From the NCBI RefSeq assembly GCF_056712565.1, contig NZ_CM160072.1: a stretch of 64,000 nucleotides of DNA; one strand, 5' to 3'. This document shows positions 38,731 through 48,507 of this stretch, one piece after another. The notes under the pieces were generated by a model, which had not been told where the DNA came from, searched no databases, and worked only from the letters and a program-made list of their open reading frames with translations. How positions within the stretch are numbered: position 1 is the stretch's first letter; every line of letters begins with the position of its first letter. A program made the translations under genes and the position numbers.

Positions 38731-39058
38731 GTTCACTGCCGTACAGGCAGCTTAGAAATGACGCCATATGCAGATCATTGAGGCGAAACCGTTCACTGCC
38801 GTACAGGCAGCTTAGAAAACGTTCGCACCGGTCAGGGTACTGCGCAGCGTGTTCACTGCCGTACAGGCAGCTTAGAAAGAAACCAGAGCGCCCGCATAAA
38901 ACAGGCACAAGTTCACTGCCGTACAGGCAGCTTAGAAATGATGGCGCAGCAGTCCTCCCTCCTGCCGCCAGTTCACTGCCGTACAGGCAGCTTAGAAACT
39001 GAACGTTGAAGAGTGCGACCGTCTCTCCTTGTTCACTGCCGTACAGGCAGTATTCACA
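38731..39058 (+). CRISPR. Type I-F CRISPR array 1: 6 repeats (last degenerate), 5 spacers of 32 bp
   Basis: 28 bp repeat GTTCACTGCCGTACAGGCAGCTTAGAAA at 38731, 38791, 38851, 38911, 38971; terminal repeat GTTCACTGCCGTACAGGCAGTATTCACA at 39031. Confidence 0.97.
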
Positions 39059-39230
39059 CTACGATAGTGTTAGACGTTTGGTCGTGCAATGACACTCTCA
39101 ACTTCAAACCATTAGCGTTAGCACGCAATAACAATCGTAATAATTGCGATGGAAATCAATTTTCAGCACATAAATCAATGCTGTACTAAGCCCAATACCT
39201 TCAAATATAAAATAATCACAGGATGTGTTT

Positions 39231-40214
39231 ATGTCTTCGAATTACCTTACGCCTTCCGATCTCAAAACCATTCTCCACTCCAAACGCGCCAATATTTATT
39301 ATCTGGAAAAATGCCGGGTACAGGTGAATGGTGGGCGGGTGGAGTATGTTACCAGCGAAGGTAAAGAGTCGTACTACTGGAATATCCCCATTGCGAATAC
39401 CACGGCGTTGATGCTGGGAATGGGAACTTCCGTTACCCAGGCGGCGATGCGTGAATTTGCTCATGCCGGGGTGATGGTAGGCTTTTGTGGTACGGATGGC
39501 ACGCCGCTGTATTCAGCAAATGAAGTGGATGTTGATGTCTCCTGGCTCAGCCCACAAAGTGAATATCGCCCTACAGAGTATCTCCAGCAGTGGGTTTCTT
39601 TCTGGTTTGTTGAAGACAAACGACTTGCTGCCGCGAAACGTTTTCAGTTAATCCGCCTGACACATATCGATAAGCACTGGTCCAGCTCGAAAATGCTGCG
39701 TGAACACGCATTTCAACCTGATGTTAATGCGCTGCATACCCTCCTGAATCGTACTTGTGAAGAAATAGACGCGGCAGAAAACCATACGCAGCTTATGCTC
39801 GTTGAGGCCAAATTGACTAAAGCGTTATACAAAATGGTCAGTCAAACCGTGGGGTATGGCGATTTCACTCGCGCAAAACGGGGCGGTGGTATCGATATGG
39901 CCAACCGCTTCCTCGATCAAGGGAATTATCTGGCTTATGGACTGGCAGCAGTGGCGGCGTGGGTAACAGGTATCCCGCACGGTTTAGCTGTAATGCATGG
40001 TAAGACACGTCGCGGCGGGCTTGTTTTTGACCTTGCCGATCTGATTAAAGATGCTCTTGTTATGCCGCAAGCATTTATTGCCGCAATGGCGGGAGAAGAT
40101 GCTCAGGAGTTTCGTCAACGCTGTGTTAATATCTTTCAACAAGCGGATGCGCTGGATGTCATGATCACCTCTCTGCAGGAAACGGCCCAGGCACTGGCTA
40201 AGGCTGACCAATGA
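39231..40214 (+). CDS. cas1: CRISPR integrase Cas1 (type I-F)
   Basis: MSSNYLTPSDLKTILHSKRANIYYLEKCRVQVNGGRVEYVT... strongly resembles Pseudomonas/Yersinia I-F Cas1; AGGA ribosome-binding site 8 nt upstream. Confidence 0.93.
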   Translation: MSSNYLTPSDLKTILHSKRANIYYLEKCRVQVNGGRVEYVTSEGKESYYWNIPIANTTALMLGMGTSVTQAAMREFAHAGVMVGFCGTDGTPLYSANEVDVDVSWLSPQSEYRPTEYLQQWVSFWFVEDKRLAAAKRFQLIRLTHIDKHWSSSKMLREHAFQPDVNALHTLLNRTCEEIDAAENHTQLMLVEAKLTKALYKMVSQTVGYGDFTRAKRGGGIDMANRFLDQGNYLAYGLAAVAAWVTGIPHGLAVMHGKTRRGGLVFDLADLIKDALVMPQAFIAAMAGEDAQEFRQRCVNIFQQADALDVMITSLQETAQALAKADQ

Positions 40215-43200
40215 ATGTCCTAATTATCTCACGCTGTACGAAAAATGCTCGCGTGGAAAGCTGCCGTATTATTGATCAGTTTGCCGAACGCACTGGTGAC
40301 GCAGCATGGCAAACGGTGATTACTCTGGAAGGCGTTAATACACTCCGCCGTTTACTGCGCAAAACCGCCAGGCGAAATACCGCAGTGGCTTGTCACTGGC
40401 TGAAGAAGAATGGGCAAACGGAGCTGATGTGGATTGTCGGCAATATTCGTCGCTTTAATGCTCAAGGCCGCGTTCCCACAAATCGAACAACGCAAATCAG
40501 CCTGGTGAACAAAGAAGAAAATCGCTGGCAGTGCGCGGAAAGTATTGCACTGCTGGCGGCTATCGCTGGGCTATTTCATGATTTTGGTAAATCAGGACGC
40601 AGCTTTCAGCAAAGCCTGACTCAAAAGAATACCCGCAGTTATCAACCTTACCGACATGAATGGATTTCACTGCGGCTCTTTCAGACGTTTGTCGGTGAGC
40701 GGCCCGACGATGTGTGGCTGGCGAAGCTTGGCGAACTCACGGCAGATGATGAATCTGCGATTCTTGAGCGCCTGCAAAAAGACACTCCTCAATTTTCAAA
40801 TAGCCCGTTCAGTTCGCTGCAACCATTAGCCAAAACGGTAGGCTGGCTGATCCTTTCCCATCATCGAATGCCGGAGAATCTTTCTCCACAGTCGGAACAA
40901 TCATGTAAAGGGTGTGAAAGTTGGCTGGAGAAGCAACTTAATGCTGACTGGAATGCCGTTAACCACCGCAGAGATGACTGGTCACAACAGGATTTTGCGC
41001 ACGTCTGGCAGTTTCCATCAGGAACGCCGCTTCAAAGCGCGAGCTGGCGGGAAAAAGCGCGTCAGATAGCCCGCCGGGCAAGCAACGCGCTCGGTTTAAA
41101 GACATATGGGCAGATGGAACAGTTGTTCCCCTTACATATGGCGCGTTTTTGTCTGATGCTTGCCGATCATTACTATTCCTCAAGCGATGCGCAGCAAAAA
41201 TGGCAGGACCCGGATTATATCGTCTGGGCAAATAGCGATCGCCAAAGCGGCACGCTCAAACAACGGGTAGACGAACACCTTGTGGGCGTCGCGCATCATG
41301 CGTATCTGCTTGGGCGGCAACTGATGCACACACGGGCATCGCTTCCGGCAATTGCCCGACATAAAGGTTTTAGCCAGCGGGCTACAGATGTGAATTATCG
41401 CTGGCAAGATAAAGCCTGGGATGTGGCGCGAGCGTTACGTGAACGAAGTCGTGAAGAGGGATTTTTCGGCGTCAATATGGCCTCGACGGGGTGTGGTAAA
41501 ACCTTTGCGAACGCCCGCATTATGTATGCACTTGCCGACGAGCGAGAAGGGTGCCGCTTTACCGTTGCGCTGGGATTGCGCACGCTGACTTTACAAACCG
41601 GCGATGCTCTGCGCAGTCGGCTTGGGCTGGGTGAGGATGAGCTGGCGGTACTGATTGGTTCGGCGGCAGTTAATCAACTGTGGCAACAGGAAAAAATAGA
41701 CAATGATTGCGGAAGTGCTTCGCAAGAGTCGCCGGCAGAGGAGCAACAGTTCGTTAAGTACGAAGGCAGCCTGCATACCGGGGCGCTGGAAAAATGGTTG
41801 AAGGATGACAGCAAACTTAAGGAGTTAGTAAGCGCGCCGATTCTGGTCTCGACGATTGATCATCTTATTTCCGCGACCGAGGGCGTGCGAGGCGGGAAAC
41901 AGCTTCCGGCGATGTTGCGCCTGTTAACCAGCGATTTAGTGCTCGACGAACCTGATGACTTTGATATTGCTGATCTTCATGCGGTATGTCGATTGATGAA
42001 CTGGGCCGGGATGCTGGGAACGCGGGTATTACTTTCTTCCGCGACGTTACCGCCAGGTTTGATTCAGGCGCTGTTCGCGGCTTATCTTGCTGGGCGAAAA
42101 ATGTGGCAGGCGTCTTGTGGTATCAACGGCAGGCCTGTCAATATATGCTGCGCCTGGTTTGATGAAAAAGATGCTGATGCCACGCAAATTTACGACGGAC
42201 CTGGGTTTCGTGATGCTCATGCCAAATTTGTTGCACGACGAGCGGTAATGCTGGCTGAAAAAGAACGACTGCATTTCGGGCGTGTAGCTTCGGTTTCATC
42301 AGCATCAGGCGCGATACAAGATGTTACCGAAAGTGTGGCCCAGACGGTGCATACGCAAATGCTGAAGTTGCATCAGGCGCATCGCCAGCGACACGAAAGC
42401 GGTAAAACCGTTTCGCTGGGCCTGGTGCGCTTCGCGAATATCAATCCACTGGTTGCGGTGACCAAAGCCCTGATTGCCATTCCTTCACCAGAAGATGTCT
42501 GCATTCATTACTGTGTTTACCACTCCCGACATCCGCTGGCGGTGCGTTCAGATATTGAGAAGCGACTGGATCGCGCTTTTACTCGTCATAACGAACTCGA
42601 TTTCTGGAACAACGAAGATATCGCAGATGCCTTACATAACCGTCCGGAATCGCACCATCTGTTTGTGGTGTTGGGGACATCGGTTATAGAAGTGGGGCGT
42701 GACTGGGATGCGGACTGGGGAATTATCGAACCAAGCTCCATGCGTTCGATAATTCAATTTGCCGGACGTATTCAGCGCCACCGTAGAAATGTGCCGACCA
42801 GTGAGAATCTGGTTATTTTGCGTAGCAATATCAAATCATTGCAGAAAAAAGCCCCCGCATTTTGTAAGCCTGGTTTCGAAACAAAAGAACACTTGCTGAA
42901 TAGCCACGATATTTGCGAACTGATTCCGATCGCGGACTACCGGACGATTAACGCCTTGCCGCGGATCCTGTCTGCCAATAATGCCAACAAACTGGCGGAG
43001 CTAGAACATAGTCGTTTATCCGCCGAATTGATGAGCAGTAAAAGCAAACATGTGGTGGCGGCGCAATGGTGGCGTGCACCGCTAAGCTGGAACGGCTGGA
43101 TGCAGCGCCAGACGCCATTTCGTTATTCCCCTTTGCCGGAGGCGGTGTTTTTTCTGCATATGGATGATGAAGAAAGCGAAGCGCGTTTCTATTCCCGCAC

Positions 43201-47776: not shown

Positions 47777-47949
47777 AAATTGTTTTGCTGCCAGACCTCA
47801 TAGGTGGCAACGGGGCGCTACTATAGGGAGTTGGAGTGAAACGGTCAAGAAGAATTTATATAGATTGATTTGTTTGGTTACGCAATGAACACGCTGTTCG
47901 CGGGACGGAGATTATGACCGTATGTGTTCTGGTCAATTGTTTATCAAAA

Positions 47950-48118
47950 GCTATGCAGAAAATATGAGATTGAAGAAATACCAAACCGACCCTTTTTCTA
48001 GGTTGTAATGTAACTCATTGATTTTCTTATTGCTATTTTGAAGTCTGGAAAAAGGGTTTGAATCTGCGATTTTGTAAGTTTTAACAGTAAATCAATCGGA
48101 TAGTCTGCTATTATTCCA
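47950..48118 (+). promoter_or_regulatory. Putative leader of CRISPR array 2
   Basis: AT-rich non-coding stretch 5' of the first repeat; polarity set by the degenerate distal repeat. Confidence 0.4.
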
Positions 48119-48507
48119 GTTCACTGCCGTACAGGCAGTTTAGAAATGGATTCCAAACCGCCCACCAACAAAAACAGGTGTTCACTGCCGTACAGGCAGC
48201 TTAGAAAGATACGATCGAATTTAGTCACTGAATACCCCCGTTCACTGCCGTACAGGCAGCTTAGAAAGGGTTGCGCAATGGGCTGGCCGACGAACGCGGG
48301 TTCACTGCCGTACAGGCAGCTTAGAAATGTGGCGCTGATGCGTCTGGGCGTCTTTGTACGTTCACTGCCGTACAGGCAGCTTAGAAAGCGCGCAGTGCCT
48401 GATAATCAATTTTGCTCATGTTCACTGCCGTACAGGCAGCTTAGAAAGAATATTTTGGAAAAATAGCTATCAATCCGGGGTTCACTGCCGTACAGGCAGT
48501 CTTCAAA
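48119..48507 (+). CRISPR. Type I-F CRISPR array 2: 7 repeats (first with one mismatch, last degenerate), 6 spacers
   Basis: Repeats at 48119, 48180, 48240, 48300, 48360, 48420, 48480; first repeat has C to T at position 21; first spacer 33 bp, others 32 bp; terminal repeat GTTCACTGCCGTACAGGCAGTCTTCAAA. Confidence 0.97.

Follow-up and report, generated by a model that had tools for sequence, protein, structure and literature searches.

Predicted decay of an ST95-type CRISPR-III locus in Escherichia coli and a putative CreR-type mini-array within it

Does a CRISPR-Cas locus in which every expected gene can be named still defend its host, and did it arrive as an island? Both questions are raised by a stretch of 64,000 nucleotides of contig NZ_CM160072.1 (assembly GCF_056712565.1), hereafter the window, in which an earlier note had seen a complete type I-F locus inserted between clpA and infA. 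We conclude that this is very probably an ST95-type allele of CRISPR-III in decay, predicted from its sequence to be non-functional and to carry an orphaned CreR-type mini-array.

A known locus and its intact parts

The genes clpA, which ends at 38518 and forms the left flank, and infA border an interval holding two arrays, six cas genes and serW. By its sequence this is the known E. coli CRISPR-III locus, type I-F1, and not a new one: CRISPR-III with arrays CRISPR4.1 and CRISPR4.2 has been published at the clpA-infA position (PMC3903273), in agreement with the location and gene order given in the earlier note. Positions 38500-48620 are 100% identical to ST95-type genomes, where the RefSeq annotation is also I-F, and about 238 of the 5426 complete E. 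coli genomes considered (~4%) carry the locus. NCBIfam models run on the window's open reading frames matched all six type I-F protein families, with scores far over the cut-offs for Cas1f, Cas3f, Csy1 and Csy3. The Cas profile matches and the repeat family, which Rfam places in CRISPR-DR4 (RF01317), bear out the subtype first proposed, more exactly as I-F1, and the parts then listed (two arrays, cas1f, cas2-3f, csy1, csy2, csy3, cas6f and serW) are all present where they had been placed.

Four of the cas genes, all on the + strand, are intact. They are cas1f (39231..40214; TIGR03637, 549.9 bits; so annotated in RefSeq), cas2-3f, encoding the fused Cas2-Cas3 helicase-nuclease (40211..43444; TIGR02562, 1208.6 bits over residues 1-1074 of 1077 aa), csy1 or cas8f (43774..45081; TIGR02564, 415.4 bits) and csy3 or cas7f (46012..47013; TIGR02566, 441.4 bits). 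Strain LF82 has its CRISPR-III at the same chromosomal position, with leaders, repeat and gene order as in the window. Compared with it, cas1f, csy1 and the gap that precedes csy1 show no nucleotide difference, cas2-3f differs by 12 nucleotides and 5 amino acids, and csy3 differs by one amino acid. The cas operon ends at a terminator-like hairpin (47597..47620, + strand; 10-pair stem, then TTTTTAT). Beyond it lies serW, a tRNA-Ser(GGA) on the - strand (47689..47776), recognised by ARAGORN and by the Rfam tRNA family in a block 95.7% identical to K-12 and with a promoter-like TTGACC/TATAGT at 47848-47820.

At the left edge, a terminator-like hairpin of clpA (38542..38573, + strand; 14-pair stem, then a T run) stands just before the AT-rich leader of array A (38574..38730, + strand). 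Array A (CRISPR4.1; 38731..39058, + strand) has six repeats and five 32-nt spacers; the exact 28-nt repeat GTTCACTGCCGTACAGGCAGCTTAGAAA starts at 38731, 38791, 38851, 38911 and 38971, and the terminal repeat (39031-39058) is degenerate. Array B (CRISPR4.2; 48119..48507, + strand) follows its own leader (47858..48118, + strand), which is absent from K-12. It has seven repeats and six spacers, the first of 33 nt, with repeat starts at 48119 (one mismatch, C21T), 48180, 48240, 48300, 48360 and 48420 and a degenerate terminal copy at 48480. Matches to the repeat with at most three mismatches numbered 11, against 0 expected from shuffles; Rfam scored 12 copies of CRISPR-DR4 on the + strand at the gathering score, the degenerate copy at 39031 falling below it.

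The system has the same six families (Cas1f, Cas2-3f, Csy1-3, Cas6f), 28-nt hairpin repeat, 32-nt spacers and CC PAM as the I-F1 systems of Pseudomonas aeruginosa and Yersinia ('Ypest'), and its proteins align full-length to solved Csy structures. It differs from them in its genus, in its chromosomal core-gene context and in having two subunits as pseudogenes.

Stop codons, spacers and probable loss of function

The locus is not complete in the sense first claimed. csy2 (cas5f; 45078..46001, + strand) has an in-frame TAG at 45291-45293 (Q72*, C45291T), and cas6f (csy4; 47024..47578, + strand) has another at 47390-47392 (Q123*, C47390T). Relative to the intact LF82 locus, both are C to T changes turning CAG into TAG; LF82 has CAG at the csy2 site, and both S88 and LF82 have C at the cas6f site. 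The NCBIfam profiles accordingly match in two pieces each, 1-65 and 73-295 for csy2, 1-123 and 128-184 for cas6f, and in a strain with the window's exact sequence over 38500-48620 RefSeq annotates the two genes as pseudogenes with 'internal stop'. The full length of cas6f aligns to solved Cas6f chains, and the gene carries a 28-site divergent tract relative to LF82. Of 237 I-F-positive genomes, 124 contain an identical 61-mer around the csy2 stop; for the stop-bearing cas6f 61-mer the count is 11 of 240.

In an intact relative such as LF82, Cas1f and Cas2-3f would insert spacers at both leaders and Cas6f would cleave the transcripts of the arrays at the hairpin of each repeat. Csy1, Csy2, Csy3 and Cas6f would then assemble on each crRNA into a Csy complex, which would find CC-flanked protospacers and recruit Cas2-3f to degrade them. 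We assume that the truncated Csy2 (71 aa) and Cas6f (122 aa) are inactive, although low-level read-through of TAG may occur. With both truncated, neither assembly of the Csy complex nor maturation of crRNA is expected, and the system should be incapable of interference and of adaptation. Since two of six genes are cut short by stops, the locus is most likely a dead relic, not a working defence.

The arrays point the same way. They hold 5 + 6 spacers, against 9 + 22 in LF82; in array A the oldest spacer alone is shared with that strain, and the spacers of array B are a subset of its array B (numbers 10, 11, 12, 14, 15 and 22). The leader-proximal repeat of array B is mutated by C21T (C48139T), which accounts for one of just two differences from S88. 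According to a preprint (bioRxiv 10.64898/2026.01.12.698643), the spacer set of ST95 has stayed conserved over decades, and the short arrays would be frozen relics.

Spacers 4, 5 and 9 match, perfectly or nearly, more than 5000 mostly conjugative IncF-type plasmids: spacers 4 and 5 of array A have perfect matches in IncF plasmids, and the fourth spacer of array B (48328-48359) matches RepFIB plasmids. Plasmid carriage by sister strains was checked in two of them. Strain PA45B combines the csy2 stop and spacer 9 with a plasmid on which the protospacer is perfect and flanked by CC. On pECOS88, the plasmid of S88, this protospacer recurs with one mismatch, again beside a CC PAM; the spacer 5 site there has CT, not CC, as PAM. 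The presence of such plasmids in related ST95 strains whose spacers target IncF suggests that loss of function is at least tolerated. It may even have been selected because it lets IncF plasmids stay, a correlation seen in two strains.

These observations leave very little room for the view that a complete and working type I-F defence here defines an active CRISPR immunity of the strain. In its favour, the six genes and both arrays stand in canonical order, and Cas1f, Cas2-3f, Csy1 and Csy3 are unbroken, with few or no differences from those of LF82. But the stops at csy2 codon 72 and cas6f codon 123 contradict it. Sister strains carry plasmids whose CC-flanked protospacers match one of the strains' own spacers perfectly or nearly so, which an active system would not tolerate. 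The arrays are also short, with a mutation in the first repeat of array B. We regard this possibility as the least credible of those considered here.

Comparison with K-12 and the age of the locus

The locus had also been taken as an insertion relative to a K-12 interval with only short non-coding DNA between its genes. The comparison gives about 9.4 kb of extra sequence: window positions 38760-47648 (8,889 bp) replace 62 bp of K-12, and positions 47858-48555 (698 bp) replace 108 bp. Yet what K-12 has there is more than plain non-coding DNA: an orphan I-F mini-array with the same leader, one exact I-F repeat, one spacer and a degenerate repeat. The spacer matches cas1f at 39328-39359 on the - strand with 2 mismatches, and window positions 38477-38759, where the homologous leader lies, are 94.7% identical to K-12. 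This orphan CRISPR4.1-2 array of cas-F-negative E. coli, with its anti-cas spacer, shares leader and repeat with the window but consists of a single spacer, and neither array B nor any cas gene goes with it; the genes at which this spacer would be aimed are all present in the window.

One might nevertheless see in the locus a recently inserted accessory island and in the K-12 layout the ancestral empty site, since K-12 lacks cas-F genes and so do all but about 4% of complete E. coli genomes. Against this stand the homologous leader, exact repeat and cas1f-directed spacer kept in K-12. In GC content the cas region matches its flanks, without anomaly; the core gene serW lies inside the locus, collinear with K-12; and no integrase or mobile-element gene is annotated by RefSeq in the interval. 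E. whittamii and a cryptic Escherichia clade have related I-F loci, and the literature describes cas-F as the oldest system, clonally inherited, ameliorated and lost from most lineages (PMC3903273). Recent insertion is thus doubtful, and we consider it unlikely.

A mini-array between cas2-3f and csy1

A degenerate antisense mini-array (43448..43528, - strand), not mentioned in the earlier note, occupies part of the 330-bp gap that separates cas2-3f from csy1. It was recognised by its sequence anatomy and hairpin folds, and is unannotated in RefSeq. On the - strand, psiR1 (43528-43501) has a 4-bp hairpin followed by a perfect 8-nt handle CTTAGAAA; psiS (43500-43476) is the 25-nt sequence TAGAGGTATCTCCGGATACGGACTT; and psiR2 (43475-43448) has a canonical hairpin and a degenerate 3' end. 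The element was found in all 238 I-F-positive E. coli genomes. In the window's allele the short psiR1 stem (-4.0 vs -8.6 kcal/mol) makes processing of the mini-array by Cas6f uncertain. A promoter-like site stands in front (43529..43557, - strand; -35 TTGCCA, 17 nt, -10 TAACAT) by consensus match only, with 0.8 such matches expected by chance in a 400-nt region; GCAAATA and TGTTA at this site are invariant in the allele alignment.

The predicted target (43600..43631, - strand) is a protospacer running from 43629 to 43600 with a 5'-CC PAM at 43631-43630. Nucleotides 1-5, 7-11 and 13 of psiS pair with the + strand at 43617-43629, mismatches falling only at 6 and 12, and this is the sole seed-plus-PAM match for psiS in the 64-kb window. 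A -10-like TAATAT (43605-43610, + strand) with a poor -35 lies within the target footprint and a consensus scan found no csy1 promoter; overlap of the target with that promoter is putative and unproven.

The predicted product of the mini-array is a short crRNA-like guide, its 25-nt spacer set between the 8-nt handle and the canonical hairpin. Were the system working, the 13-nt seed match and the CC PAM would bring the Csy complex, loaded with this guide, to its target, 142 bp upstream of csy1, where the complex would repress csy transcription without cleavage, as in CreR-type autoregulation. The guide-target pair fits this known kind of Cas-autoregulating guide, judged by sequence and position. 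The same architecture has been validated experimentally in a P. aeruginosa I-F1 system (PMC10120712): in strain YL84 (Shmakov et al. 2023), as here, two repeat-like sequences surround a shortened spacer between cas3 and cas8f, antisense to cas3, with a seed match by a CC PAM upstream of cas8f and mismatches at 6 and 12. The E. coli element differs in having no sequence relation to that one, in its unproven promoter overlap and in its broken effector. We found no description of a mini-array of E. coli I-F in the accessible literature. As no Csy complex is expected to form, the autoregulatory loop would be orphaned in this strain.

Could the mini-array instead be the antitoxin (CreA) of a CRISPR-repressed toxin-antitoxin, whose hydrophobic peptide toxin would force dependence on Csy? 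Modules in which creA accompanies a CreT or CreP toxin are known from the cas3-csy1 gap of I-F loci (bioRxiv 10.1101/2024.01.05.574328, 10.1101/2024.10.29.618823), and CreTA and CrePA of Acinetobacter and P. aeruginosa resemble the window's element in their place in this gap, in a guide built as psiR-psiS-psiR and in a small ORF behind the target (bioRxiv 10.1101/2024.01.05.574328). Five alleles encode MIITTGVVPFTVCVVVLKPGWATEIFQ-like hydrophobic peptides of 27 aa, with SD and ATG, 3' of the target. Their variable sites (5/1/7 at codon positions 1/2/3) are biased to third positions, and all cas genes are intact in 5/5 sampled genomes with the 27-aa allele, a link confounded by clonal descent. 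The window's allele family has a start change and a +1 frameshift: its ORF in the csy leader (43645..43758, + strand; SD AGGAG at 43629-43633, GTG start, 37 aa) is a frameshifted form with an extra A near 43684. The small ORF has no NCBIfam match and resembles no known toxin family. No terminator separates it from csy1, so that its transcript must continue into csy1. In addition, 124 genomes do well with the csy2 Q72* change, and LF82 shares the window's gap sequence exactly, which argues that this allele imposes no addiction; with Csy-null E. coli lineages viable, none is evident. A toxin-antitoxin role is thus improbable.

We give still less weight to the idea that these repeat-like sequences have no function and are left over from an old array or a recombination scar, even though psiR1 is degenerate in the window's allele, Rfam scored neither psiR1 nor psiR2, and stand-alone repeats appear sporadically in I-F1 loci (PMC10120712). 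Across 7 Escherichia alleles psiR2 and psiS are nearly invariant, psiS varying at positions 5 and 6 only and psiR2 only in its degenerate tail and at one hairpin base, while the neighbouring gap sequence is ~78% identical between alleles. An autoregulatory guide agrees better with the target, where the CC PAM and the pairing of positions 1-5, 7-11 and 13 are kept in 6/6 alleles and in agreement with the seventh; the shuffle control for this comparison was not significant on its own. Among the alleles compared, position 12 stays unpaired throughout and position 6 is unconstrained, so that variation falls at the flipped positions 6 and 12 and in a single compensatory event, a G:C to U:A change at position 5 in one allele, seen again in three metagenome contigs.

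The I-F locus and its counterpart in K-12

The arrays, cas genes and serW of the interval between clpA (ending at 38518) and infA (48620-48838, minus strand) all lie where the earlier note had placed them. The 28-nt repeat GTTCACTGCCGTACAGGCAGCTTAGAAA occurs in 11 copies within three mismatches, against none expected from shuffles. Array A (38731-39058, plus strand) consists of 6 repeats and 5 spacers and array B (48119-48507, plus strand) of 7 repeats and 6 spacers, both at 60-nt spacing. The last repeat of each is degenerate, and these terminal copies sit at the leader-distal ends. 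Rfam assigns 13 plus-strand copies to CRISPR-DR4 (RF01317), 12 of them at or above the gathering score and the copy at 39031 below it. The repeat folds with a 5-bp stem (-8.6 kcal/mol), and the combination of 28-nt hairpin repeats with spacers of about 32 nt behind an AT-rich leader is that of I-F1 arrays. Between the two CRISPR features RefSeq annotates cas1f, cas3f, csy1, csy2, csy3 and cas6f, and serW (tRNA-Ser(GGA), 47689-47776, minus strand) also lies inside the locus.

NCBIfam I-F models fit all six genes which, with the Rfam assignment of the repeats, upholds the earlier type I-F call. Cas1f has an intact frame, the same as in E. coli LF82, and matches TIGR03637 with 549.9 bits (cut-off 150). 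The Cas2-Cas3f fusion matches TIGR02562 with 1208.6 bits over residues 1-1074, including HD and helicase sub-hits. Csy1/Cas8f is a separate large subunit of 435 aa (TIGR02564, 415.4 bits), the feature that sets I-F1 apart from I-F2 and I-F3. The genes for Csy2/Cas5f, Csy3/Cas7f and Cas6f are present too (TIGR02565, TIGR02566 and TIGR02563), Csy3 scoring 441 bits. Csy2 has homologs in solved Csy complexes and aligns with their Csy2 chains, and Cas6f can be aligned over its full length with solved Cas6f chains. The interval has no annotated Tn7 genes, and cas1 and cas2-3 are both present. Since the separate csy1/cas8f occurs together with these two genes, the subtype is I-F1.

The earlier note identified the locus correctly, and it is a well-known one: published as CRISPR-III, it lies between clpA and infA and comprises six cas-F genes with the arrays CRISPR4.1 and CRISPR4.2 in the same arrangement (PMC3903273). 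Among 5426 complete E. coli genomes, about 237-240 have it. Several complete genomes match the window at 100% identity over 38500-48620, and S88, APEC O1 and the type strain ATCC 11775 deviate from it by one or two bases. We take these three strains and UTI89 to represent the ST95 lineage.

The earlier note regarded the locus as inserted into a site that in K-12 would hold only short non-coding DNA. The cas genes are indeed extra relative to K-12, but the K-12 site is not plainly empty. The alignment of K-12 with the window consists of three blocks (38477-38759, 47649-47857 and 48556-48654), and K-12 differs from the window by two separate replacements. Between clpA and serW it keeps a homologous leader, one exact I-F repeat, one spacer and a degenerate repeat. 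The sole spacer of this orphan array (positions 482-513 of L004, the K-12 stretch compared) matches cas1f at 39328-39359 on the minus strand with two mismatches. K-12 thus carries a vestige aimed at this very I-F locus. The cas-less state therefore holds a spacer against cas genes that K-12 lacks, reportedly a published phenomenon, the 'anti-cas spacer'. A recent insertion is disfavoured on other grounds as well. The cas region shows no GC anomaly (0.49-0.52, similar to the flanks), the annotation of the interval lists no mobility genes, serW occupies the same place as in K-12, and related I-F loci exist in E. whittamii and in a cryptic Escherichia clade. Previous work described cas-F as clonal, ameliorated and the first system acquired (PMC3903273). 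Together with the K-12 vestige, these observations lead us to read the K-12 state as derived or alternative rather than as a naive empty site, and the change was probably a loss. Recombination between the two arrays might be proposed as the origin of the K-12 layout, but it would have removed serW, which K-12 keeps.

Broken effector genes and plasmid targets

The system had been called complete, which does not hold: two effector genes carry in-frame TAG codons. In csy2 (45078-46001) the stop is codon 72 (Q72*, 45291-45293), and in cas6f (47024-47578) it is codon 123 (Q123*, 47390-47392). Accordingly, the NCBIfam profiles match in two pieces around the stops, at 1-65 and 73-295 for Csy2 and at 1-123 and 128-184 for Csy4. 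All six cas genes are intact in LF82, whose I-F system is reportedly active in experiments, and both stops are C to T changes in CAG codons relative to that strain. At the nucleotide level cas1f, csy1 and the cas2-3f/csy1 gap are identical to LF82. RefSeq flags an internal stop in csy2 of S88 and PA45B, and in both csy2 and cas6f of Z0117EC0054, a strain without any difference from the window over 38500-48620. Over 13 kb the window differs from S88 at two bases only, the cas6f stop and C48139T, the latter at position 21 of the array B repeat nearest the leader. This position is the first base of the 8-nt handle, beside the Cas6f cleavage site.

The 61-mer around the csy2 stop is found identical in 124 of 237 I-F-positive genomes, that around the cas6f stop in only 11 of 240. 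From these counts the csy2 lesion appears to be older and lineage-wide and the cas6f lesion recent. Assembly of the Csy complex needs Cas5f, and the C-terminal third of Cas6f carries residues needed for holding and cutting the repeat hairpin. The system is thus genetically broken in the window strain, and from the gene sequences we infer that crRNA maturation and interference would both be lost. Adaptation is probably lost as well, because in I-F systems it depends on the interference machinery.

Some other changes in these loci deserve mention. Between 47158 and 47475 cas6f has 28 clustered differences from LF82, while the other non-identical cas genes differ at 0.2-0.8% of sites; this cluster looks like a recombination tract. 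E. coli STEC299 has a cas3f that is annotated as a pseudogene truncated at its N terminus, and in E. coli 503829 an IS100 lies between serW and the expected position of array B.

The spacers record a shared past with LF82. The six spacers of array B correspond to numbers 10, 11, 12, 14, 15 and 22 of the 22 in LF82 array B, and array A shares with LF82 its oldest spacer only. Since the first spacer of array B (48147-48179, 33 nt rather than 32) is LF82 spacer 10, the nine leader-proximal LF82 spacers are absent from the window. Perfect or near-perfect plasmid matches were found for spacers 4 and 5 of array A and for the fourth spacer of array B (spacer 9, 48328-48359). These three match more than 5000 plasmids, mostly conjugative IncF-type replicons of Escherichia, Klebsiella and Salmonella; an antirestriction gene and the region of the RepFIB initiator are among the sites matched. 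For the fifth spacer of array B (48388-48419), partial matches of 28-32 nt (90-96% identity) occur in E. coli and Salmonella phages of the lambdoid and Stx-converting kinds.

Two strains with the csy2 stop carry plasmids that their own spacers match. PA45B has both the stop and spacer 9, and its own IncFIA/FIB/FIC plasmid contains a perfect protospacer. The S88 plasmid pECOS88 has the spacer-9 site with one mismatch, at position 25. At both of the sites read, in pPA45B and pECOS88, the protospacer is preceded by 5'-CC; the spacer 5 site in pECOS88 is preceded by CT, not CC. The presence of plasmids with matching CC-flanked sites fits a dead system, as an active one should not coexist with them. 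Amber suppression could in principle rescue both TAG codons, but the CC-flanked protospacers on the sister strains' own plasmids argue against meaningful activity. These observations suggest, without proving it, that inactivation was favoured by plasmid carriage. The ST95 spacer set was reported to have remained unchanged for decades (bioRxiv 10.64898/2026.01.12.698643, preprint), a constancy that loss of function would explain.

Hence, the window should be annotated as I-F1 with broken effector genes rather than as active defence, and its arrays are lineage markers and no proof of present immunity. The commonest I-F allele in sequenced E. coli (124/237, including S88, APEC O1, UTI89 and the type strain) is knocked out, and its spacers still match the IncFIB/ColV-type plasmids of these pathogens. 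This fits the idea that loss of CRISPR lets in virulence and resistance plasmids. We regard this link with plasmid tolerance as a modest addition to what is known of the locus, and likewise the E. coli mini-array described below, which lies in a tractable host.

A predicted guide-target pair between cas2-3f and csy1

The earlier inventory of the locus passed over a degenerate mini-array. The 329-bp gap between the end of cas2-3f (43444) and the start of csy1 (43774) holds, in order on the minus strand, the repeat-like psiR1 (43528-43501, ACCCAAACTGCCTTGAGCAGCTTAGAAA), the spacer-like psiS of 25 nt (43500-43476, TAGAGGTATCTCCGGATACGGACTT) and the repeat-like psiR2 (43475-43448, GTAAACTGCCGTACAGGCAGCTCGCGCC). 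In psiR1 the hairpin is weak (4 bp) and the CTTAGAAA handle perfect, psiR2 keeps the canonical hairpin, and a promoter-like TTGCCA-17-TAACAT adjoins psiR1 on the minus strand. Two repeat-like sequences thus surround a spacer-like one in the cas3-cas8f gap, antisense to cas3. The seed of psiS with a CC PAM has a sole site in the 64 kb, at 43629 to 43600 on the minus strand and 142 bp upstream of the csy1 ATG, as in regulatory mini-arrays. Pairing covers positions 1-5, 7-11 and 13, while 6 and 12 are mismatched; I-F complexes flip out every sixth base, which stays unpaired. The validated mini-array of the P. aeruginosa I-F1 system shares these two mismatches, likewise has a shortened spacer, and is placed and oriented in the same way; Csy-dependent repression without cleavage was shown for this analogue only (PMC10120712). 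The gap holds an unannotated, predicted CreR-type guide-target pair. For I-F systems of E. coli this is a modest lead.

The gap is present, and unannotated, in 238 of 238 I-F-positive E. coli genomes. Relative to the window, 200 of these have an allele of at least 95% identity, 1 lies at 80-90% and 37 at 60-80% (78.2% in those listed). We compared six alleles, from the window, STEC299, 503829, E. coli SCPM-O-B-8794, E. whittamii and Escherichia sp. E1V33, and later added a seventh from a metagenome. All seven have a CC PAM and pair at positions 1-5, 7-11 and 13. Position 12 is unpaired in all of them, and position 6 varies on both sides irrespective of pairing. The 503829 allele has position 5 changed on both sides, from G:C to U:A, and this allele with both changes recurs in three independent metagenome contigs. 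A shift of the partner by 1-3 columns lowers pairing from 76% to 24-45%. Shuffle statistics on pairing, with a single compensatory event, are not significant alone; it is the positional pattern that persuades us that the putative pair is strongly constrained. A search for phage mimics of the guide with handle and seed (CTTAGAAATAGANNTATCT) gave 12 matches in viral contigs, which lack the repeat hairpin and are attributable to chance. The I-F locus of Pseudocitrobacter has no cas3-csy1 gap and is uninformative on the mini-array.

The target may act at a csy promoter. A -10-like TAATAT (43605-43610) lies inside its footprint and reads TAGATT or TAAATT in other alleles, so that T1, A2 and T6 are invariant; the -35 is poor. 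A consensus sigma-70 scan of the plus strand gave no csy1 promoter. Alternatively, the role of the target might be to block read-through from cas2-3f. A CRP-like half-site read by eye (TGTGA at 43644) was discarded, as it has no partner and is not conserved in the other alleles. The last 120 nt or so before csy1 (43655-43773) are nearly invariant, whereas elsewhere in the gap the alleles are about 78% identical. Folding of 43617-43790 gave no signal of a structured RNA in the csy leader (z = +1.0), and neither a fold nor a consensus promoter accounts for this near-invariance. Three short palindromes share TCACC/GGTGA: ATCACC-TAT-GGTGAT (43577-43591), GTGATCAC (43645-43652) and CACCA-C-TGGTG (43650-43660). 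Flanking the predicted target, they may serve to bind a regulator; their conservation in other alleles is only partial.

A small open reading frame beside the target

In five alleles (loci L007, L008, L009, L011 and L018 of our comparison, L011 being that of 503829) an SD and an ATG directly after the target open a 27-aa hydrophobic ORF, MIITTGVVPFTVCVVVLKPGWATEIFQ. With 5, 1 and 7 variable sites at the first, second and third codon positions and conservative replacements, its variation leans towards third positions and resembles that of coding sequence. The family has no NCBIfam match at E <= 10. In the window allele the ORF (43645-43758, plus strand) begins with GTG, and one additional A puts it out of frame (+1) after codon 13, so that the product is 37 aa long. 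The ORF might be an upstream ORF, or else encode a toxin repressed by CRISPR; such toxins are known from the cas3-csy1 gap in other I-F systems (bioRxiv 10.1101/2024.01.05.574328).

One might speculate that the gap encodes, besides the guide RNA, a guide-controlled 27-aa hydrophobic peptide toxin that enforces retention of the Csy complex, and that the allele of the window and LF82 (B2-type) was disarmed by the change of start and the frameshift. All five sampled genomes with the intact 27-aa ORF keep their cas genes intact, a correlation that is confounded by descent, and a disarmed allele would explain the decay of csy2 and cas6f in ST95 if the toxin were real. Yet we consider this reading improbable. 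Addiction of the CreTA/CrePA kind implies that loss of the effector is deleterious, and 124 of the 237 genomes live with csy2 knocked out by Q72*. As the gap of the window is also identical to that of LF82, the window allele imposes no addiction.
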